A stretch of DNA of 64,000 bases. It comes from a phage. The stretch's first letter is position 1. Each line of letters begins with the position of its first letter. Made by a program: the position numbers and the translations under genes. Below are positions 8,648 to 49,611 of the stretch, piece by piece. The DNA lies in the sequence record PZ179882.1, one strand, 5' to 3'. The notes under the pieces were generated by a model, which worked only from the letters and a program-made list of their open reading frames with translations, made no database searches and was not told where the DNA came from.

Positions 8648-10461
8648 TGGTGTTTAACCCTATGCATGATTTCTTTATTTTTTCCAAGATTAAATCCGCG
8701 CTCGTTCGGATTTCCCAAATAGCCACATGTTCTTCTTATTGTGTTCATCTTTTTAGGATCAGTTTCTCCACAAATAGAACAAACAAATCCGTTTTCAGTA
8801 GGAGTCATTTCATGGGTACTTCCACACGTAAAACATTTATCTACTGGCATATTAACACCAAAATAATCTAAATGTTGTGCAGCATAATCCCATACAGCCT
8901 CAAGACCTTTTAGATTATTTTTCATATCAGGAAGTTCAACATAAGAAATGTGACCGCCTGTCGCGATGAAATGATATGGGGCTTCGCGAGAAATCTTTTC
9001 AAACGGAGTAATATTTTCTTCTACTGAAACATGGAAACTGTTAGTGTACCAGCCTTTATCGGTAACATCTTTTACACTTCCATATTTTTCGGTATCAAGT
9101 TTACAGAAGCGATAGCACAGGTTTTCAGCAGGAGTAGAATACAAGCTAAAAGCAAAACCAGTTCTTTCAGTCCACTGCTTAAGATGAGCATTCATTTTAG
9201 TTAAAATTTCTTGTCCAATATCACGACCGACAAGAATATTCAATTCGTGAATACCAATGTATCCTAAGGACACTGAACTTCTACCGTTTTTAAATAACTC
9301 AATTATATCGTCATCGGGTTTAAGACGAACCCCGAATGCACCTTCTTGATAAAGAATAGGAGCAACAGTAGCTTTAACTCCTTTTAAGGAACTAATTCTA
9401 CACATCAATGCTTCAAAACATAAATTCATTCGCTCATTGAACAATTCAGTAAATTTCTGTTCATTGAACTGTGTTCCAATATAAGAATCTAACGCAATAC
9501 GAGGAAGATTCAGTGTTACAACACCAAGATTATTACGTCCATCAAGAATTTCATTACCAGTCGAATCTTTCCATACGCCCAAGAAACTACGGCAACCCAT
9601 TGGAGAAACAGGAATAGATGAACCAGTGATAGCTTTATTGTTCTTAGCTGAAATAATATCAGGATACATTCTTTTGCTTGCACACTCTAGAGCAAGCTGC
9701 TTAATATCATAGTTCGGATCGTCTTTATAAAGATTAACACCCTCTTCAACGAACATAACAAGTTTAGGGAAAATAGGAGTTATCCCATCACGACCGAGAC
9801 CTTTAATACGATTTTTCAGAATTGCTTTCTGAATCATTCGTTCAGTCCAGTCAGTTCCAGTACCAAATGTAATTGTTACAAAAGGCGTTTGTCCATTTGA
9901 ACTAAAGAGAGTATTTACTTCATATTCATAAGCTTGGAACGCATCGTATACGTCTTTTTCTGTTTTAGATTGGGCATAATTCAATGCATCAGCGATTTGC
10001 CATTTTTCTGCGTCCTCAATATGTTTTGCATAGGTGCGTTTAACATAAGGAGAAAGTACTTTGTCTACATTCGCAAAAGTCGTTCCGCCGTATTGATGGG
10101 AAGCAACTTGCGCAGTAATTTGCGCCATAATTGCAGTAGCAACGCCAATTGATTTAGGAGTTTCAATCTGTGCATTACCAAGCTTAAATCCGTTTTCAAG
10201 CATTCCTTTTAAATCTACTAAACAGCAATTAGTAAATGGAAGAGCAGGGGAATAATCAATATCGTGGAAATGGATAATTCCGCTTTCATGCGCTTTCATA
10301 ATAAAAGACGGGACCATATTTTTGGCAATGTGTTTAGACACAATACCAGCCATAAGGTCCCGTTGAGTTGGAAAAACACGAGAATCTTTATTAGCATTCT
10401 CGTTTAAAAGGTCTTTATTAGTTTTATGAATCAATCCTTCAATTTCTTTTTCAATTGTCAT
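8644..10461 (-). CDS. nrdD: Anaerobic ribonucleoside-triphosphate reductase (class III), uninterrupted
   Basis: 605 aa continuous ORF; C-terminal glycyl-radical and Zn-ribbon region (CFTCGSTHEM...CSICG...RTCGYLG) recognised as T4 NrdD. Confidence 0.95.
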   Translation of the reverse strand: MTIEKEIEGLIHKTNKDLLNENANKDSRVFPTQRDLMAGIVSKHIAKNMVPSFIMKAHESGIIHFHDIDYSPALPFTNCCLVDLKGMLENGFKLGNAQIETPKSIGVATAIMAQITAQVASHQYGGTTFANVDKVLSPYVKRTYAKHIEDAEKWQIADALNYAQSKTEKDVYDAFQAYEYEVNTLFSSNGQTPFVTITFGTGTDWTERMIQKAILKNRIKGLGRDGITPIFPKLVMFVEEGVNLYKDDPNYDIKQLALECASKRMYPDIISAKNNKAITGSSIPVSPMGCRSFLGVWKDSTGNEILDGRNNLGVVTLNLPRIALDSYIGTQFNEQKFTELFNERMNLCFEALMCRISSLKGVKATVAPILYQEGAFGVRLKPDDDIIELFKNGRSSVSLGYIGIHELNILVGRDIGQEILTKMNAHLKQWTERTGFAFSLYSTPAENLCYRFCKLDTEKYGSVKDVTDKGWYTNSFHVSVEENITPFEKISREAPYHFIATGGHISYVELPDMKNNLKGLEAVWDYAAQHLDYFGVNMPVDKCFTCGSTHEMTPTENGFVCSICGETDPKKMNTIRRTCGYLGNPNERGFNLGKNKEIMHRVKHQ

Positions 10462-18480: not shown

Positions 18481-19200
18481 TTAGGATTCTTCTAAATGTC
18501 TTTTCTGAAAAGTTGATACCATACTACGATACGGTTCATTTGGATACCCGTGTTTTATAGCTTCCTTTGTAAATTTTCTCCATCCATATTTAGTTTCTTT
18601 CCAAAGCTCGAATAATTCATCTTCATATTGCCATATAGTTAAATGAGAACGCTTTGCAGCTTTAATTCCATTAATATGCTTTTCTTTTACTACAGGATTA
18701 CTTAGTTTCTTTTTAATAATATTACTAACTTTTCTAACAAAAACTGGGTCCTTATATCGTTGCGAAGTTTTTATTGAAGTGTTTAATTTAGCTTCCGGTG
18801 TGGATGTGACCTCTTTCATCTTTTTCTTCATATGCTGTATATGATTAGGATTTTTCCATAAATTTATAGAATGCTTTTTGCATTTTATCCTAGTTTCATC
18901 TGCAACCTTTCCTCCTTCACCTCCGTATGACAGGTTAACACAGTTTTTTCCATATTTCAATTTACCTGCCATGATATATAATATTTCAGCTTGTACCATT
19001 TTATCATAATTATCAAAAACTTCTAAAACCGTTTTTGTTAATATGTGGTCATTTGACACTTTTACACGTTCTATATAATTTCCACTACCAACATACGAAT
19101 CATTGATGTTATTAGTTATATGTCGACCATAATAGTATTTCTTAATACCTGTCTTTAAATTTAATATTTCAGTTTTATAGATAGTAAAATATTTTTTCAT
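18481..19200 (-). CDS. GIY-YIG homing endonuclease (Seg-like)
   Basis: 239 aa; N-terminal TIYKTEILN...KYYYG...YVGSGNYI GIY-YIG-like motifs; basic NUMOD-like C-terminus. Confidence 0.65.
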   Translation of the reverse strand: MKKYFTIYKTEILNLKTGIKKYYYGRHITNNINDSYVGSGNYIERVKVSNDHILTKTVLEVFDNYDKMVQAEILYIMAGKLKYGKNCVNLSYGGEGGKVADETRIKCKKHSINLWKNPNHIQHMKKKMKEVTSTPEAKLNTSIKTSQRYKDPVFVRKVSNIIKKKLSNPVVKEKHINGIKAAKRSHLTIWQYEDELFELWKETKYGWRKFTKEAIKHGYPNEPYRSMVSTFQKRHLEES

Positions 19201-37274: not shown

Positions 37275-37350
37275 TGGTCGAGGCAGTAGGGATCGAACCT
37301 ACGACCTAGGACTTAGAAGGTCCTTGCTCTTCCTTCTGAGCTATGCCCCG
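37275..37350 (-). tRNA. tRNA-Arg (anticodon UCU)
   Basis: 76 nt cloverleaf folded by eye; loop CUUCUAA; T-loop GTTCGATCC; encoded CCA. Confidence 0.85.
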
Positions 37351-37354
37351 TAAT

Positions 37355-37429
37355 TGGGTGACCGATGGGAGTCGAACCCATGACTACGAGAATCACAATC
37401 TCGAGTTCTACCAACTGAACTACGGCCAC
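37355..37429 (-). tRNA. tRNA-His (anticodon GUG)
   Basis: 75 nt cloverleaf; loop UUGUGAU; T-loop GGTTCGACTCC; encoded CCA. Confidence 0.8.
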
Positions 37430-37543
37430 ATTAATACCTACTCCAACAATCAAGATGTCTTCACACGAAATTAAGAGAAGAGTGATCAGTTCAACCCCTA
37501 TAATCGCGTCAAGTAGATATTAATGTGACAGTTGTCACAAATT

Positions 37544-37618
37544 TGGCGGACGTGATAGGATTCGAACCTATAACCAATCGCTTAACAGGCGATCGCTCTG
37601 CCATTGAGCTACACATCC
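37544..37618 (-). tRNA. tRNA-Asn (anticodon GUU)
   Basis: 75 nt cloverleaf; loop CUGUUAA; encoded CCA. Confidence 0.8.
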
Positions 37619-37622
37619 AAAT

Positions 37623-37709
37623 TGGTGGGGAGTGATGGAGTCGAACCACCCGAGTCGCAATGACAATGGATTTACAGTCCACACCGCTACCTCTACGGGA
37701 TAACTCCCC
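37623..37709 (-). tRNA. tRNA-Tyr (anticodon GUA)
   Basis: 87 nt with long variable arm; loop CUGUAAA; encoded CCA. Confidence 0.75.
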
Positions 37710-37721
37710 TAATTCGTAATT

Positions 37722-37796
37722 TGGTGGCCCTGGGTGGAATTGAACCACCATCTGGCGATTATGAGTCGCTTGCTTGAACCTTCCAGCTACAGGGCC
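37722..37796 (-). tRNA. tRNA with CAU anticodon (Met, or Ile if C34 is lysidine-modified)
   Basis: 75 nt cloverleaf; loop CUCAUAA; one mismatch in D and anticodon stems. Confidence 0.75.
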
Positions 37797-37797
37797 T

Positions 37798-37873
37798 TGG
37801 TGCTGATTGACGGAATCGAACCGCCGACCTTCTCATTACAAGTGAGTTGCTCTACCTACTGAGCTAAATCAGC
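37798..37873 (-). tRNA. tRNA-Thr (anticodon UGU)
   Basis: 76 nt cloverleaf; loop CUUGUAA. Confidence 0.85.
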
Positions 37874-37878
37874 AAAAC

Positions 37879-37968
37879 TGGCGGAGGCGATAGGATTTGA
37901 ACCTATGAGTCGCCGGAGCGACTGCCGGTTTTCAAGACCGGTGCATTAAACCACTCTGCCACGCCTCC
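37879..37968 (-). tRNA. tRNA-Ser (anticodon UGA)
   Basis: 90 nt with long variable arm; loop CUUGAAA. Confidence 0.8.
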
Positions 37969-37970
37969 AG

Positions 37971-38044
37971 TCTCCGTGGCAGGATTTGAACCTACGACAT
38001 TCTGCTCCCAAAGCAGACGCTCTACCAAACTGAGCTACACGAAG
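37971..38044 (-). tRNA. tRNA-Pro (anticodon UGG), CCA not encoded
   Basis: 74 nt; loop UUUGGGA; 3-prime end lacks CCA. Confidence 0.8.
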
Positions 38045-38054
38045 TAAATTAAAT

Positions 38055-38128
<74 letters not shown>

Positions 38129-38133
38129 AAATT

Positions 38134-38220
38134 TGGTGCGAGAAGTGGGACTCGAACCCACAAGGAAATCATTCCGCAGCATTTTAAGTGCTGTGCCTTT
38201 ACCAATTTGACCATTCTCGC
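38134..38220 (-). tRNA. tRNA-Leu (anticodon UAA)
   Basis: 87 nt with long variable arm; loop CUUAAAA. Confidence 0.85.
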
Positions 38221-38226
38221 TCTATA

Positions 38227-38859
38227 TTATTTATTACGTGAAAAAGATTGTTCTATCAATTCTGGACACTTTCGTTCTATCCATTTTCTAGCTTTTTGTG
38301 GGCTTATACCTATTATTTTAGCAGCTTTACTAACCCATCCAAATTTAGAATAATCGATTTTAACTAATTCTTCGTAAATTTCATCAGTTAAAATCTTTTC
38401 ATTAATATTTACCAGTAAATGATATAATTTATTATCATTAGCAATTTTAATGAATCTTTTATAGTTTCCGCCTTTACTTAAACCTAATGAAGTAATTGCA
38501 GATGATATAGTAGCTGAATTTAATAGTGCGTTTAAAATTTCTTCATCACTAACATTATAACGCTTTTTATTATTTTTAATATTTTTACCGGCAAAAGTAT
38601 CAGTTTGCGAATGGCAATTTGGACATAATAATCTTAAATTTGATTTAAGATGATTTTTGTTATTTCCATCAATATGGTCTAATTGCAGAACAATATGCTT
38701 ATTTTGCCATTTTGAAATTTTACAAATTGCACACTCATATGGAAAAATATTTTCTTTTATTATTTTGTCTTTCAGCTTTCCTGTACTAAAATTTGGATGT
38801 TTTCCTTCAAAAATTTCAGCTAATTTAGTATCCATAATATAATTCCCAATTATTAACAA
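38227..38859 (-). CDS. HNH homing endonuclease
   Basis: 210 aa; LQLDHIDGNNKNH...LRLLCPNCH HNH motif; stop 6 nt upstream of tRNA-Leu; start may be 38835. Confidence 0.65.
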   Translation of the reverse strand: MLIIGNYIMDTKLAEIFEGKHPNFSTGKLKDKIIKENIFPYECAICKISKWQNKHIVLQLDHIDGNNKNHLKSNLRLLCPNCHSQTDTFAGKNIKNNKKRYNVSDEEILNALLNSATISSAITSLGLSKGGNYKRFIKIANDNKLYHLLVNINEKILTDEIYEELVKIDYSKFGWVSKAAKIIGISPQKARKWIERKCPELIEQSFSRNK

Positions 38860-43572: not shown

Positions 43573-43580
43573 TATAAATA
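43573..43580 (+). promoter_or_regulatory. Late promoter TATAAATA upstream of gene 53
   Basis: Exact TATAAATA 29 nt upstream of the gene 53 ATG. Confidence 0.65.
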
Positions 43581-43608
43581 GATAATATATTTATAAACAG
43601 GAGGGCCC

Positions 43609-44199
43609 ATGCTCTTTACATTTTTTGATCCGATTGAATATGCGGCCAAAACGGTGAATAAAAACGCGCCGACTATTCCTATGACAGATATTTTTAGAAA
43701 CTATAAAGACTATTTTAAACGCGCTCTTGCGGGATACCGCTTACGTACTTATTATATCAAAGGTTCACCACGCCCGGAAGAATTAGCAAATACTATATAT
43801 GGAAATCCGCAGTTGTATTGGGTTTTATTGATGTGTAATGATAATTATGATCCGTATTATGGATGGATTACTTCGCAAGAAGCTGCTTATCAAGCATCTA
43901 TACAAAAATACAAAAACGTAGGTGGAGACCAAATAGTATATCATGTGAATGAGAACGGTGAAAAATTTTATAATTTAATATCATACGATGATAATCCATA
44001 TGTTTGGTATGACAAAGGCGATAAAGCTAGAAAATATCCTCAATATGAAGGAGCACTTGCTGCGGTCGATACGTATGAAGCTGCTGTTCTTGAAAATGAA
44101 AAACTTCGTCAAATAAAAATAATAGCAAAATCAGACATCAATTCATTTATGAACGACCTTATACGTATAATGGAGAAATCTTATGGAAATGATAAGTAA
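43609..44199 (+). CDS. 53: Baseplate wedge protein gp53
   Basis: 196 aa; TATAAATA late promoter 43573..43580 upstream. Confidence 0.92.
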   Translation: MLFTFFDPIEYAAKTVNKNAPTIPMTDIFRNYKDYFKRALAGYRLRTYYIKGSPRPEELANTIYGNPQLYWVLLMCNDNYDPYYGWITSQEAAYQASIQKYKNVGGDQIVYHVNENGEKFYNLISYDDNPYVWYDKGDKARKYPQYEGALAAVDTYEAAVLENEKLRQIKIIAKSDINSFMNDLIRIMEKSYGNDK

Positions 44200-45913
44200 T
44201 AACCTTAATTGGTTTGTTGGTGTTGTTGAAGATAGAATGGACCCATTAAAATTAGGTCGTGTTCGTGTTCGTGTAGTTGGTCTGCATCCACCTCAAAGAG
44301 CACAAGGCGATGTAATGGGTATTCCAACTGAAAAATTACCATGGATGTCAGTTATTCAACCTATAACTTCTGCAGCAATGTCTGGAATTGGAGGTTCTGT
44401 TACTGGACCGGTAGAAGGAACTAGAGTTTATGGTCATTTTTTAGACAAATGGAAAACTAACGGAATTGTCCTTGGCACGTATGGTGGAATAGTTCGCGAA
44501 AAACCGAATAGACTTGAAGGATTTTCTGACCCAACTGGACAGTATCCTAGACGTCTAGGAAATGATACTAACGTATTAAACCAAGGCGGAGAAGTAGGAT
44601 ATGATTCGTCTTCTAATATTATCCAAGATAGCAATCTAGACACTGCGATAAATCCTGATGATAGACCGCTATCAGAGATTCCAACTGATGATAATCCAAA
44701 TATGTCAATGGCTGAAATGCTTCGCCGTGATGAAGGATTAAGACTAAAAGTTTATTGGGATACAGAAGGATATCCGACAATTGGTATTGGTCATCTTATC
44801 ATGAAGCAGCCAGTTCGTGATATGGCCCAAATTAATAAAGTTTTATCAAAACAAGTTGGTCGTGAAATTACCGGAAATCCAGGTTCTATTACAATGGAAG
44901 AAGCGGTAACTTTATTTGAACGCGATTTGGCTGATATGCAACGTGACATTAAATCACATTCTAAAGTTGGCCCAGTTTGGCAAGCAGTTAATCGTTCTCG
45001 TCAAATGGCGTTAGAAAATATGGCATTCCAAATGGGCGTTGGTGGCGTAGCTAAATTTAACACAATGTTAACTGCTATGTTAGCCGGAGATTGGGAAAAA
45101 GCATATAAAGCCGGTCGTGATTCATTGTGGTATCAACAAACAAAAGGCCGTGCATCGCGTGTTACCATGATTATTCTTACAGGGAATTTGGAATCATACG
45201 GTATTGAAGTTAAAACACCAGCTAGGTCTTTGTCAGCAATGGCTGCTACTGTAGCAAAGTCTTCTGACCCGGCCGATCCTCCTATTCCGAATGATTCAAG
45301 AATTTTATTCAAAGAACCTGTTTCTTCATATAAAGGTGAGTATCCGTATGTTCATACAATGGAAACTGAAAGCGGTCATATTCAGGAATTTGATGATACC
45401 CCTGGGCAAGAGCGATACAGATTAGTTCATCCGACTGGAACGTATGAGGAAGTATCACCGTCAGGAAGAAGAACAAGAAAAACTGTTGATAATTTGTATG
45501 ATATAACAAATGCTGACGGTAATTTTTTGGTAGCCGGCGATAAAAAGACTAACGTCGGTGGATCAGAAATTTACTACAACATGGATAATCGTCTTCACCA
45601 AATAGATGGAAGCAACACAATATTTGTCCGTGGCGATGAAACTAAGACAGTTGAAGGTAATGGAACTATCCTAGTTAAAGGTAATGTTACTATTGTAGTT
45701 GAAGGTAATGCTGATATTACAGTTAAAGGGGATGCTACTACTTTAGTTGAAGGAAATCAAACTAATACAGTAAATGGAAATCTTTCTTGGAAAGTTGCTG
45801 GGACAGTTGATTGGGACGTTGGTGGTGATTGGACAGAAAAAATGGCATCTATGAGTTCTATTTCATCTGGTCAATACACAATTGATGGTAGCCGTATAGA
45901 CGTAGGTTTATAA
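44183..45913 (+). CDS. 5: Baseplate hub/tail lysozyme gp5
   Basis: 576 aa; central lysozyme domain MAEMLRRDEGLRLKVYWDTEGYPTIGIGHL; C-terminal VxGxxxxx beta-helix repeats. Confidence 0.95.
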   Translation: MEMISNNLNWFVGVVEDRMDPLKLGRVRVRVVGLHPPQRAQGDVMGIPTEKLPWMSVIQPITSAAMSGIGGSVTGPVEGTRVYGHFLDKWKTNGIVLGTYGGIVREKPNRLEGFSDPTGQYPRRLGNDTNVLNQGGEVGYDSSSNIIQDSNLDTAINPDDRPLSEIPTDDNPNMSMAEMLRRDEGLRLKVYWDTEGYPTIGIGHLIMKQPVRDMAQINKVLSKQVGREITGNPGSITMEEAVTLFERDLADMQRDIKSHSKVGPVWQAVNRSRQMALENMAFQMGVGGVAKFNTMLTAMLAGDWEKAYKAGRDSLWYQQTKGRASRVTMIILTGNLESYGIEVKTPARSLSAMAATVAKSSDPADPPIPNDSRILFKEPVSSYKGEYPYVHTMETESGHIQEFDDTPGQERYRLVHPTGTYEEVSPSGRRTRKTVDNLYDITNADGNFLVAGDKKTNVGGSEIYYNMDNRLHQIDGSNTIFVRGDETKTVEGNGTILVKGNVTIVVEGNADITVKGDATTLVEGNQTNTVNGNLSWKVAGTVDWDVGGDWTEKMASMSSISSGQYTIDGSRIDVGL

Positions 45914-45916
45914 ATA
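45909..45916 (+). promoter_or_regulatory. Late promoter TATAAATA upstream of the SegC-like endonuclease gene
   Basis: Exact TATAAATA 16 nt upstream of ATG 45932. Confidence 0.55.
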
Positions 45917-45931
45917 ATTCAGAGGTGAATT

Positions 45932-46798
45932 ATGAAAAAATCTAACACTGTTCAATTTAGATACATATATAAAACAACCGTTACTAATCCGAAAGGATTA
46001 GTACGTGTTTATATTGGTAAACATGAATCTAGATATTTTGATTTAGAAAATGACAAGTATATAGGTTCCGGTGATTATATTAAAAAGATACGCAATAAAC
46101 CTGGTTATAAAATAGATTTTGAAATAATTGAATTTGTTTCTACTTATGAAATTCTTAATTTAAGAGAAAGGTATTGGATTTCGAAATATAAATCATCTGA
46201 CATTCTATGTACCAATATAAAATCCGGCGGTGATGGTTTTTCATCCGAAGATTTGAAGAGAATGTGGTCTAATCCTGAATATAGGAAAGCTCAATTGAAG
46301 GCATTAGCTAAATCAACGTCAACTAAAGAATTTTCAGAGAAAATATCTAAAATAAACAAAGAAAGATGCGCATCACCAGAATATCGAAAGAAAATGAGTA
46401 ATGCGATGAAAACTGCTTTTGAAAATGACCCGACATTAAAAATTCGTATTTCTAATACTGTTAAATCTTTATGGAAATCCGATGAATACAGAAATAAATT
46501 AATCAATCATCCAGGAAAAATAGAAGGAACGAAACAATCATGGAATGATCCTTTGATAAGAAAATCGAGATTAGATGCTAGAAATAAAAAACTAAGATCA
46601 GTTGAACCTTGGATTAGTATAGAAAAAGTCAAAAAACTTTGGGAGGATTTGGGAAAACCGCATCCGCAGAAATACAAATGGTTTAGAGAAAAAGCAATTG
46701 AACATGACCTTCCGGATGTAAGTTATAACGCAATTTTAAAAGCTTTGAAAAAATGTGATTATAAATTTACATCATTAGAGAATTCAACAATTGGCTAA
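45932..46798 (+). CDS. GIY-YIG homing endonuclease (SegC-like)
   Basis: 288 aa; RYIYKTTVTNPKGLVRVYIGKHES GIY-YIG motif; repeated W-NPEYRK NUMOD-like motifs; own TATAAATA at 45909..45916. Confidence 0.7.
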   Translation: MKKSNTVQFRYIYKTTVTNPKGLVRVYIGKHESRYFDLENDKYIGSGDYIKKIRNKPGYKIDFEIIEFVSTYEILNLRERYWISKYKSSDILCTNIKSGGDGFSSEDLKRMWSNPEYRKAQLKALAKSTSTKEFSEKISKINKERCASPEYRKKMSNAMKTAFENDPTLKIRISNTVKSLWKSDEYRNKLINHPGKIEGTKQSWNDPLIRKSRLDARNKKLRSVEPWISIEKVKKLWEDLGKPHPQKYKWFREKAIEHDLPDVSYNAILKALKKCDYKFTSLENSTIG

Positions 46799-46808
46799 TA
46801 TACTTCCA

Positions 46809-47327
46809 ATGAGCGCTGATTTAGGAGAATCCATGGAAGGTTCTTCTATCGACGTCACCTTTACCGCTCAATTAGAAACAGGTGAAACGTTAGTATCTAT
46901 AAATATAACTAGTTACGAAGAAACTCCTGGGGTTTTAGTAGAAGAAAATCGTTTATATGGAACGTATGAATCTGTATTTGGATTTGGAAATGACGCATTG
47001 AAATATCGTTTAGATGATGAATTTAAAACTGCTGCTTCATGGGAAGACCTTCCAACTGATTCTAATACTCAGTTATATCTATGGAAAGCTCCTCAAAACC
47101 TCCAGAAGACATTCACTTATGAAGTAACATTAATATATGACTACCAAGAACAAAGTGAATCTGGAGGTTCTGGCAGTAATTCTAGGTCATCTTCTGATAC
47201 TACTGAACCAACGGATCCTCCTGCTCCAATAAGAAAAACTCTTGTTAAAAATTACACAAAAACTATAGTTGGAAATTGGAGCCGTTGGGCTAATAAATTG
47301 AGAAGCTACGTATATGAGAGGCAATAA
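46809..47327 (+). CDS. Hypothetical protein with S/G/T/P-rich linker (gene 5.x position)
   Basis: ORF track 46791..47327 starts at TTG; first ATG at 46809; 172 aa. Confidence 0.5.
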
Positions 47328-47620
47328 TGTCAGGATTAAGTTATGATAAGTGTGTTACTGCTGGCCATGAAGCATGGCCTCCAACAGTTGTGAATGCTAC
47401 ACAAAGTAAAGTATTCACCGGAGGAATTGCTGTTCTCGTAGCAGGTGATCCAATTACAGAACATACAGAAATTAAAAAGCCATATGAAACACATGGCGGA
47501 GTGACACAACCTAGAACTTCTAAGGTATATGTCACTGGAAAGAAAGCTGTTCAAATGGCTGATCCAATATCATGCGGTGATACTGTGGCTCAGGCATCAT
47601 CTAAAGTATTCATTAAATAG
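47327..47620 (+). CDS. 5.4: Baseplate spike tip (PAAR-like) gp5.4
   Basis: 97 aa; [19 protein letters not shown]... matches T4 gp5.4. Confidence 0.9.
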
Positions 47621-47628
47621 GATTTAAA

Positions 47629-49611
47629 ATGGCAAATACCCCTGTAAATTATCAATTAACAAGAACAGCAAATGCTATTCCCGAGATATTCGTCGGGGGT
47701 ACATTTGCTGAAATAAAACAAAACCTCATTGAATGGCTTAATGGTCAAAATGAATTTTTGGATTATGATTTTGAAGGCTCAAGATTAAACGTTCTGTGCG
47801 ACCTTTTGGCTTATAATACATTGTACATTCAACAGTTTGGTAATGCTGCCGTGTATGAAAGCTTTATGCGTACTGCTAACTTACGTAGTTCAGTAGTTCA
47901 AGCGGCACAAGATAATGGATATTTACCTACTTCAAAATCAGCTGCTCAAACTGAAATTATGCTAACTTGTATAGATGCATTGAATAGAAATTACATTACT
48001 ATTCCTCGCGGTACTCGCTTTTTAGCATATGCAAAGGATACTTCTGTTAATCCTTATAACTTTGTCTCTACTGAAGATGTTATTGCTATTCGTGATAAAA
48101 ATAACCAGTATTTTCCACGTTTAAAATTAGCTCAAGGACGTATAGTAAGAACTGAAATCATTTACGATAAATTAACACCTATTATCATTTATGACAAAAA
48201 TATAGATAGAAACCAAGTTAAACTATACGTTGATGGAGCAGAATGGATTAACTGGACAAGAAAGTCAATGGTTCATGCTGGTTCTACATCAACAATTTAC
48301 TACATGCGTGAAACTATTGATGGAAATACTGAATTTTATTTTGGTGAAGGTGAGATTTCTGTTAACGCGGCAGAAGGAGCATTGACCGCTAATTATATTG
48401 GAGGTCTTAAACCTACCCAGAACTCTACGATTGTTATTGAGTACATCAGTACTAACGGTGCAGATGCGAATGGTGCAGTCGGATTTTCATACGCAGATAC
48501 ATTAACAAATATAACTGTCATCAATATTAATGAAAACCCAAACGATGACCCAGATTTTGTTGGGGCAGATGGCGGCGGTGACCCAGAAGATATTGAACGT
48601 ATTCGCGAATTGGGTACTATTAAACGTGAAACCCAACAACGCTGCGTAACTGCGACTGATTATGATACATTCGTTTCAGAAAGATTCGGTTCTATTATTC
48701 AAGCGGTTCAGACTTTCACTGATTCTACTAAACCTGGTTATGCATTTATTGCTGCTAAACCTAAATCAGGACTATATTTAACTACTGTACAACGTGAAGA
48801 TATTAAAAATTATCTAAAAGATTATAATTTAGCTCCTATTACACCATCAATTATTTCTCCTAATTATCTTTTTGTTAAGACTAATTTAAAAGTCACATAT
48901 GCTTTAAATAAGCTGCAAGAATCCGAACAGTGGCTCGAAGGTCAAATAATTGATAAAATTGATCGTTATTATACCGAAGACGTAGAAATTTTTAATTCAT
49001 CTTTCGCTAAATCTAAGATGTTGACATATGTAGATGATGCAGATCATTCTATCATTGGCTCATCCGCGACAATTCAAATGGTACGTGAAGTACAAAACTT
49101 CTATAAAACGCCTGAAGCGGGTATTAAATACAATAATCAAATAAAAGATCGTTCTATGGAATCTAATACGTTTTCATTTAATTCTGGACGAAAAGTTGTA
49201 AATCCTGATACTGGTTTAGAAGAAGATGTATTATATGACGTTCGTATAGTATCAACAGACCGAGATTCTAAAGGAATTGGCAAAGTTATTATTGGTCCAT
49301 TTGCTTCTGGCGATGTTACAGAAAATGAAAACATTCAGCCATATACAGGCAATGATTTTAATAAATTAGCAAGTTCCGATGGACGTGACAAATACTATGT
49401 TATCGGTGAAATAAATTACCCAGCTGACATGATTTATTGGAATATCGCTAAAATTAATTTAACATCCGATAAATTTGAGGTTCAGACTATTGAGCTATAT
49501 TCTGATCCAATAGACGATGTTATTTTCACGCGCGATGGTTCACTGATTGTATTTGAAAATGATTTACGTCCACAATACTTAACTATCGATTTGGAGCCTA
49601 TATCACAATGA
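47629..49611 (+). CDS. 6: Baseplate wedge protein gp6
   Basis: 660 aa; matches T4 gp6. Confidence 0.95.
   Translation: MANTPVNYQLTRTANAIPEIFVGGTFAEIKQNLIEWLNGQNEFLDYDFEGSRLNVLCDLLAYNTLYIQQFGNAAVYESFMRTANLRSSVVQAAQDNGYLPTSKSAAQTEIMLTCIDALNRNYITIPRGTRFLAYAKDTSVNPYNFVSTEDVIAIRDKNNQYFPRLKLAQGRIVRTEIIYDKLTPIIIYDKNIDRNQVKLYVDGAEWINWTRKSMVHAGSTSTIYYMRETIDGNTEFYFGEGEISVNAAEGALTANYIGGLKPTQNSTIVIEYISTNGADANGAVGFSYADTLTNITVININENPNDDPDFVGADGGGDPEDIERIRELGTIKRETQQRCVTATDYDTFVSERFGSIIQAVQTFTDSTKPGYAFIAAKPKSGLYLTTVQREDIKNYLKDYNLAPITPSIISPNYLFVKTNLKVTYALNKLQESEQWLEGQIIDKIDRYYTEDVEIFNSSFAKSKMLTYVDDADHSIIGSSATIQMVREVQNFYKTPEAGIKYNNQIKDRSMESNTFSFNSGRKVVNPDTGLEEDVLYDVRIVSTDRDSKGIGKVIIGPFASGDVTENENIQPYTGNDFNKLASSDGRDKYYVIGEINYPADMIYWNIAKINLTSDKFEVQTIELYSDPIDDVIFTRDGSLIVFENDLRPQYLTIDLEPISQ

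Follow-up and report, generated by a model that had tools for sequence, protein, structure and literature searches.

A likely Seg-type homing endonuclease cassette at the gene 5/5.1 junction of T4-like phages

The stretch of DNA considered here, hereafter the window, is a 64,000-nt segment of a T4-like (Tequatrovirus) genome (record PZ179882.1), and all positions given are those of the window. Our subject is an intact open reading frame (ORF) of 288 amino acids (aa), here called seg, that runs on the plus strand from an ATG at 45932 to a stop codon ending at 46798; it is taken from the ORF list and is assigned as a Seg-like homing endonuclease ORF by its match to PHROG 314. An earlier note on this DNA had claimed a 288-aa ORF within 45909-46798, preceded by an exact TATAAATA. 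Both are present: the motif, an exact match to the T4 late-promoter motif, lies at 45909-45916 (+), where it overlaps the gene 5 stop codon (45911-45913). Gene 5, which encodes the baseplate hub / tail lysozyme, occupies 44183-45913 (+) in the ORF list, and its 576-aa product ends DGSRIDVGL* and contains the Pfam domains Gp5_OB (1e-65), Phage_lysozyme and Gp5_C. The seg start follows 18 nt past the end of gene 5, with GAGG, a Shine-Dalgarno sequence, at 45922-45925, 6 nt upstream of the ATG. Next comes gene 5.1 (+), which extends from TTG 46791 or ATG 46833 to 47327 (PHROG 1168, 3e-73; residues 1-177 of gp5.1 align with profile positions 1-159), followed directly by gene 5.4 (PAAR; 47327-47620) and then by gene 6 (47629-49611). 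Thus, the ORF does lie directly after gene 5, as the note had it, but not between genes 5 and 5.4, where the note also placed it; its next neighbor is 5.1, and only then comes 5.4.

The structure of the insertion is defined by comparison with the empty site of T4 and IME537, which reads ...CAATTGATGG ATCGAGGATTGAC ATTGGCTAA TATACTTCC..., where the window has ...CAATTGATGG TAGCCGTATAGACGTAGGTTTATAA ATAATT...(seg)...CAACA ATTGGCTAA TATACTTCC..., so that 13 nt of the empty site are replaced by 45889-46789. The left end of the cassette is a replaced 3' terminus of gene 5 (45889-45913, +), with TAGCCGTATAGACGTAGGTTTATAA in place of the T4-type ATCGAGGATTGACATTGGCTAA. The last 8 codons of gene 5 are rewritten in this block, with 10 of the 24 coding nt differing from the T4-type sequence, and the C-terminus changes from DGSRIDIG* to DGSRIDVGL*, an I to V substitution plus one extra Leu. 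The description of the gene as directly abutting gene 5 therefore holds for the ORF, 18 nt away, but not for the insert, whose left boundary is inside gene 5. At the right end, ATTGGCTAA (46790-46798, +), the last two codons and stop of T4-type gene 5, serves in frame as the end of the seg ORF. This ATT GGC TAA overlaps the TTG GCT AAT ATA CTT CCA of gene 5.1, and the gp5.1 N-terminus, (M)A[N/D/Q/E]I[L/F]P, is conserved in seven genera. Because seg ends on the old gene 5 terminus, the stop/start overlap into 5.1 is intact, with seg now in the place of gene 5 as the coupled upstream gene, and the cassette boundaries are seamless. In a comparison of six Tequatrovirus loci, no variation occurs within 69 nt on the left of the insert or 162 nt on its right, single-nucleotide polymorphisms in the farther flanks are mosaic with respect to seg status, and the 25-nt block is the only seg-linked polymorphism. 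In carriers, 0.9 kb of insert interrupts the empty-type site.

The gene is present in 33-34 of 532 Tequatrovirus-like records (~6%), at the same junction each time; the counts come from the INPHARED phage set and include GenBank/RefSeq duplicates. Carriers include T6, ACG-C40, fPS-2 and PYPS2T, and the T6 copy is annotated 'seg-like hypothetical protein, T6ncORF142'. An empty T4-type junction is found in 479 records. Four others (ESh36, 215Ecol030PP, LF73P3 and, with a variant block, LF73P1) carry a deletion-scar allele, in which the rewritten gene 5 end is kept along with 34 nt from the 3' end of seg. The scar is the exact product expected of an 851-bp deletion between two 8-nt direct repeats, TTATAAAT, whose left copy lies at 45908-45915 (+) and right copy at 46759-46766 (+). 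It is a degenerated cassette that keeps an altered, presumably resistant site. With ~34 occupied, 479 empty and 4 scar records at one fixed junction, seg behaves as a free-standing, mobile gene. A scan of IMG/VR gave one locus with a protein-identical copy and no new contexts. A few GenBank records already label the gene Seg-like or homing endonuclease and most call it 'hypothetical protein'; our literature searches found no paper characterizing it.

Two diverged copies indicate how the cassette has moved. The F2 (and ZQ3) copy shares 86% protein identity with that of the window. The flanking sequence of F2 matches Mosigvirus mar005P1 at 98-100% identity, on the left as far as a point ~66 nt ahead of the gene 5 stop and on the right from 18 nt past the seg stop onward. 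Between these points, a left T4-like patch of ~70 nt comprises GCATCTATGAGTTCTATTTCATCTGGTCAATACACAATTGATGG (~45 nt of gene 5 sequence) and the rewritten block, and a right T4-like patch consists of the 18 nt ATTGGCTAATATACTTCC. As judged from the sequences, these patches are a conversion tract of the kind that homing leaves, that is, the mark of a past transfer and not a measured homing event. A third copy, on the metagenomic contig L015, encodes a protein that is 78% identical and adjoins a Dhakavirus-like 5.1 sequence; its right junction, AATGGCTAA, provides an ATG start for 5.1. The comparison thus shows transfer of the cassette, with short co-converted flanks, into three genus-level backgrounds (Tequatrovirus, Mosigvirus-like and Dhakavirus-like). 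Between the window and F2 copies, the ratio of nonsynonymous to synonymous substitution rates (dN/dS) is 0.094 with dS 0.95, and seg is under strong purifying selection. This ratio, together with conservation in ~34 phage records and two diverged variants, establishes that the ORF is real. The gene is itself mosaic between lineages, with a 5' half that is 70-75% identical and a 3' (DNA-binding) half that is 90-98% identical.

From the single protein sequence, the sole family match is to PHROG 314, 'homing endonuclease' (E 1e-25). The NCBIfam model 'group I intron endonuclease' is reached at E 0.0016, which fails that model's cut-off, and single-sequence searches of the PDB (phmmer) and NCBIfam gave no significant nuclease match. 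A match to GerD was rejected as compositional noise from the helical repeats. A homologue search returned few relatives, 13 proteins mostly at 30-37% identity, and in the alignment of these with T4 SegB and SegC the residues Y11, Y13, Y27, G29, Y43xG45-S46-G47, K56, E79, N95 and G99-G100 are invariant. The GIY and YIG motifs, Y11-I12-Y13 and Y27-I28-G29, are invariant across 13-15 relatives; their spacing of 13 aa results from a 4-aa insertion that the alignment places in the beta1-beta2 loop of this subfamily. A profile made from the family alignment matches the I-TevI catalytic domain (1LN0) with an E-value of 2.9e-7 and pairs seg E79 with I-TevI E75 and N95 with N90, the catalytic Glu and Asn. 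All alignable GIY-YIG catalytic-motif residues are retained in the seg protein. Among the 15 aligned sequences, nine match SegE_GIY-YIG (PF19835), six match GIY-YIG (PF01541), and four match NUMOD3 (PF07460; best E 6e-29).

Three regions can be delineated in the protein. The GIY-YIG domain covers approximately aa 9-100 (45956-46231, +), as placed by the alignment, the profile and a model of the N-terminal region. It is followed by four PEYRxK-type helical repeats at approximately aa 108-225 (46253-46606, +) and by a helical C-terminal domain of three helices (aa 226-288; 46607-46795, +). Of the repeats, which are of the type (W/C)xxPEYRxK, one (aa 146-165, SPEYRKKMSNAMK) corresponds in the alignment to true NUMOD3 units in the relatives, and its S156 is invariant. 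The model of aa 1-105 has a predicted local distance difference test score (pLDDT) of 74.8 and a predicted template-modeling score (pTM) of 0.66, with strands at 9-18, 24-33 and 60-69 and helices at 48-53 and 72-87, in a beta-beta-alpha-beta-alpha arrangement. Its top Foldseek match in the PDB is 1LN0 (probability 0.96, template-modeling scores 0.49/0.54). Only this isolated domain is informative; Foldseek matches of the whole-protein AlphaFold model (pLDDT 67, pTM 0.33) are meaningless. By alignment and model, seg is predicted to be a diverged Seg-type GIY-YIG enzyme lying beyond the thresholds of standard hidden Markov models (HMMs), and we infer an N-terminal GIY-YIG nuclease, helical NUMOD3-like repeats and a small C-terminal DNA-binding domain.

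The origin of the rewritten gene 5 end and of the promoter can be considered in the light of seg-less relatives. Empty-site gene 5 ends of Tequatrovirus, Dhakavirus (IME08) and Gaprivervirus (VR25) share TCG AGG ATT GAC ATT GGC TAA; other seg-less genera have different codons, and there the gene 5 stop still abuts or overlaps the 5.1 start. In the Gelderlandvirus S16, a Salmonella phage with no seg, gene 5 ends GGC AGT CGT GTG GAC ATT GGT TTA TAA ATA. The extra Leu, and a TATAAATA that overlaps the stop, are found in S16 alone among the compared empty-site genera; a spacer of 29 nt then leads to the ATG of 5.1. The block beside seg in L015, GGT AGC CGT GTG GAC ATT GGT TTA TAA ATA, is almost identical to the S16 end. 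These features are read most simply as a path of two steps, in which seg would first have entered an S16-like donor, in the spacer that separates a late promoter already serving 5.1 from the start of that gene, and would then have spread to T4-type genomes together with the donor's gene 5 terminus and promoter. The late promoter of the cassette is, on this sequence comparison, probably the captured 5.1 promoter of the donor lineage, and the apparent recoding of gene 5 is probably donor sequence, which may still confer resistance on carriers. The idea that the gene 5 end was deliberately recoded for immunity is weakened, given that S16-type phages naturally end gene 5 almost alike. Similarly, the earlier note's "own late promoter" is borne out as to the motif in front of the ORF, but this is probably not an invention of the element, being present in S16 without seg.

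Several observations concern the junction of gene 5 with 5.1 in its own right. The sequence GAT GGx TCG AGG ATT GAC ATT GGC TAA TAT is identical in the Tequatro-, Dhaka- and Gaprivervirus empty sites (T4, IME08, VR25), while third-codon positions just upstream of this conserved end (the last 27 nt of gene 5) differ among the same three phages. Such local conservation could reflect overlapping start signals of 5.1; conserved sites of this kind are also targets of homing enzymes. The conserved gp5.1 N-terminus (M)ANILPMS begins at TTG 46791, whereas the T4-annotated start corresponds to ATG 46833. The 14 codons ahead of that ATG (46791-46832 in the window; 9680-9721 in the T4 locus, L002) encode a peptide that Gelderland-, Jiaoda-, Mosig-, Kanagawa-, Teguna-, Dhaka- and Gaprivervirus also have; in these genera it begins with ATG, and its conservation is accompanied by synonymous variation. 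T4-type gp5.1 may therefore start at the TTG overlapping the gene 5 stop (ATTGGCTAA), 14 codons before the T4 annotation. A GAGG 7 nt upstream of this TTG is contributed by TCG AGG, unusual codons that T4-type gene 5 has at its end.

The signals around the start of seg suggest how its expression might be controlled. In the AT-rich window, TATAAATA occurs 13 times where 11 are expected, and a single copy is not above chance. The support for the copy in front of seg comes instead from its conservation across diverged copies, TTATAAATA being invariant in four diverged seg copies while neighboring positions vary, and from its presence in S16. The T4 late box lies at positions -13 to -6, which by analogy would put the transcription start near 45922, the G of GAGG. 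A sigma-70 promoter scan, which is irrelevant to T4 late genes, gave fewer sites than shuffled sequences. The ribosome-binding site (RBS) can be folded into a hairpin at 45903-45944 (+), with an inner stem (45914-45921/45926-45933) and an outer stem (45903-45909/45938-45944), that holds GAGG (45922-45925) in a 4-nt loop and the AU of the AUG in the stem. The fold has an energy of -11 kcal/mol (z -3.9; none of 200 shuffles as stable). RNA beginning at 45922 folds at -1.9 kcal/mol and is essentially unstructured. Because a start directed by TATAAATA leaves out the 5' arm, the hairpin would form only in gene 5 read-through transcripts. An arrangement of this type has been described for I-TevI, I-TevII, I-TevIII, segB and Aeh1 mobE (PMC2988022).

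A second, terminator-like hairpin lies within the gene at 45982-46003 (+), TACTAATCC-GAAA-GGATTAGTA, followed by CGUGUUUAUAUU. Its 9-bp stem and GAAA loop span codons 18-24 and sit within the subfamily-specific 4-aa loop insertion. Three of the 9 pairs are changed on both sides in F2 and L015, two from U-A to C-G and one from U-A to A-U; every change falls in a synonymous third position, and 97% of the cells in the stem alignment are paired. The U-tract is poor, and in F2 particularly so. For mobE and segF, terminators early in the coding sequence have been described (PMC2988022), and the seg hairpin may be a weak terminator or attenuator, or an mRNA-stability element. A further exact TATAAATA at 46898-46905 (+), inside gene 5.1 and also found in T4, could be a late promoter for 5.4, 6 and onward; if so, the downstream baseplate genes would be independent of attenuation inside seg.

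Taking these features together, we consider it likely that the ORF and its flanking blocks are a selfish, mobile, Seg-type homing endonuclease cassette at the gene 5/5.1 junction, a reading that draws on sequence comparison and on analogy with studied enzymes. In the Seg/I-TevI paradigm, the enzyme would act late in a mixed infection, cutting the seg-less T4-type allele at or near gene 5/5.1, and the phage recombination machinery would repair the double-strand break on the seg+ template, copying in seg along with short flanks. Carrier DNA would be protected by the insert, which splits its site, and by the rewriting of the final 8 codons of gene 5. Transcription would start from the late TATAAATA, probably the 5.1 promoter of the donor lineage; gene 5 read-through transcripts would be translationally damped by the RBS hairpin; and, by analogy with mobE and segF, weak termination may occur at the covarying hairpin early in the coding region.

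A number of points weigh against this interpretation. Cleavage of the seg-less allele and homing are putative activities, modeled on the paradigm. With the seg protein alone, neither GIY-YIG (PF01541) nor SegE_GIY-YIG (PF19835) of Pfam is matched at E<=0.1, and the NUMOD3 HMM likewise gives no Pfam match. The earlier note's "GIY-YIG with NUMOD-like repeats" is thus right in substance, given the family profile and domain model, but the repeats resemble NUMOD3 only loosely. The Foldseek match to 1LN0 is weak (E 0.054). I-TevI Arg27 falls in an insertion relative to the Seg-like profile and has no aligned equivalent in seg, where K30, H31 and R34 are nearby; the same gap is common to T4 SegB and SegC in the alignment, and both are listed as active enzymes (PMC2988022). 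Covariation was sought in the RBS hairpin and none was found, T6, F2 and L015 each having one uncompensated defect. The covariation of the intragenic hairpin comes from three lineages only, with a rough chance of ~5% given that all six sites changed. A frequency of ~6% implies that any drive is not overwhelming. The resemblance of the rewritten gene 5 end to the natural S16-type end means that it may be donor sequence and not evolved immunity. Finally, the cut of a Seg enzyme often falls hundreds of bp away from where its gene is inserted, so the target need not be the rewritten block.

The strongest alternative, although we regard it as improbable, is that the protein has given up homing or serves a further purpose as well; it may be catalytically dead, or domesticated as a DNA-binding regulator, a weapon against co-infecting phages, or a SegB-like recombination trigger that amplifies loci under defense pressure. 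A dN/dS of 0.09 combined with a frequency of ~6% would fit a maintained function beyond pure drive, as would the higher identity of the 3' half (90-98% versus 70-75% for the 5' half), and an Arg27 equivalent is not evident. There are precedents as well, in the SegB-driven locus amplification reported in T6 under defense pressure (PMC13096335) and in I-TevI autorepression (PMC2988022). On the other hand, all of the other catalytic-motif residues are invariant, the chimeric flanks of F2 are those of classical co-conversion, no operator-like copy of a target was seen, and nothing in the sequence demands a second function.

A broader proposal extends the homing cassette reading in several directions at once. 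It would make the cassette, beyond a passive selfish gene, a self-contained and tightly regulated module, with a captured late promoter, an RBS-masking hairpin and a covarying attenuator, that crosses T-even genera, rewrites the gp5 C-terminus and re-wires 5.1 transcription and translational coupling at each homing, and acts as a marker-exclusion weapon or SegB-like trigger with fitness effects. The gp5 C-terminus is understood to adjoin the gp5.4 PAAR tip. In this full form, the proposal is speculative and improbable.

Less probable still is a scenario in which seg is ancestral to the T-even phages and its patchy presence reflects repeated loss. Deletion does occur, as the 851-bp loss between TTATAAAT repeats in four records attests, and the gene 5 end beside seg resembles that of the outgroup S16. 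However, the 479 empty sites bear no scar and have a different gene 5 terminus, gene 5 in 6 seg-less genera stops right beside the 5.1 start or overlaps it, and the T4-like patch that surrounds the cassette exactly in the Mosigvirus-like background of F2 requires lateral transfer.

The earlier note had also likened the locus to that of T4 segC by position, setting it apart by its direct contact with gene 5, and a comparison with the T4 gene 5-6 interval (gene order 5, 5.1, segC, 5.3, 5.4, 6) together with an alignment bore out that the ORF is not the segC ortholog. The chance that the ORF is simply the T4 segC ortholog in the same position is negligible, since a Seg-type gene in the gene 5-to-6 interval with an N-terminal motif common to SegC is outweighed by a segC site between 5.1 and 5.3, on the other side of 5.1 and ~0.5 kb from the gene 5/5.1 junction, by a BLASTP identity of 37% over 49 aa only (E 8e-5) between proteins of 288 and 140 aa, by the absence of an insert between 5.1 and 5.4 in the ORF list of the window, and by the presence in LH2 and T4_ev151 of both the seg ORF and a segC-type gene, one on either side of 5.1. 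A separate observation concerns segC itself. A single Seg-type ORF of 196 aa, intact in LH2 (L005 2915-3505) and T4_ev151, is broken in T4 (L002 10197-10792) into segC (140 aa) and gene 5.3 (56 aa); there, a 1-nt deletion within the direct repeat GGGCCTAGAGGGCCTAGAGG splits the catalytic from the C-terminal domain.

Other features of the window are related to the same gene family or the same signals. A second Seg-like ORF of 239 aa lies at 18481-19200 (-) and has 28% identity to the seg protein over aa 12-183 (tblastn E 2e-13) with no Pfam match; its counterpart in RB32, RB14 and RB68 is annotated 'putative site-specific intron-like DNA endonuclease' or segE. Ten tRNA genes (Arg, His, Asn, Tyr, Met, Thr, Ser, Pro, Gly, Leu) are found at 37275-38859 (-), while the T4 cluster has 8 (Arg, Ile, Thr, Ser, Pro, Gly, Leu, Gln) with segB embedded; the window cluster has no segB-sized gap. 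An adjoining 210-aa ORF at 38227-38859 gives a weak HNH match (E 0.006) that is below cut-off. Two opposed TATAAATA boxes, at 43573 (+) and 43588 (-) and together spanning 43573-43595, lie in the 47-nt gap between gene 4 (-) and gene 53 (+) and look like a divergent late-promoter pair.

The seg cassette would add an uncharacterized Seg-type enzyme to the T-even homing system, with a new target region at the end of gene 5, an essential tail-spike/lysozyme gene. The gene is present in the model phage T6 and is thus directly testable, and it may explain local marker exclusion around genes 5-5.1 in crosses of T6 with T4 or T2. This one locus displays the chief stages in the life cycle of a homing gene, from empty site to occupied site, cross-genus transfer with short tracts, and a scar that keeps the altered target. 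It also illustrates a seamless insertion, in which the end of one gene is replaced and its stop/start overlap with the next gene is reused. For annotation, the locus is a caution, as standard HMMs miss seg and most records carry it as a hypothetical protein.

The class to which seg belongs has been studied thoroughly, and the gene is ordinary in kind though instructive in its details. Like T4 SegA-SegG, and SegF/SegG ('intronless homing') in particular, it is free-standing between essential late or structural genes, has the N-terminal signature YxY...YIG...YxGSG...E...N, is present or absent among close relatives with co-converted flanks, and carries putative negative-regulation motifs, a late-promoter box and RNA hairpins. 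It differs from the T4 Seg genes in its new insertion site at the gene 5/5.1 junction, in its low identity (<=~28-37% to any T4 Seg over the N-terminal domain), in the 4-aa beta1-beta2 loop insertion and the PEYRxK repeats that stand in place of canonical NUMOD3, and in a cassette that gives the upstream gene 8 altered terminal codons and takes over its stop; seg is, moreover, known from sequence alone. SegC shares its neighborhood and enzyme family, but is a different protein with a site across 5.1. With I-TevI, the best profile and structure match for the N-terminal domain, seg has in common the succession of GIY-YIG domain, linker and DNA-binding domain, and a putative late promoter just upstream that would yield late transcripts without the RBS-masking hairpin (PMC2988022). 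In contrast to I-TevI, it is not intron-encoded, a zinc-finger linker is not detected and Arg27 is unaligned. The internal terminators of MobE and SegF resemble the seg hairpin in being stem-loops with a 4-nt loop in the 5' coding region, although the seg hairpin has a poor U-tract and draws its support from covariation.

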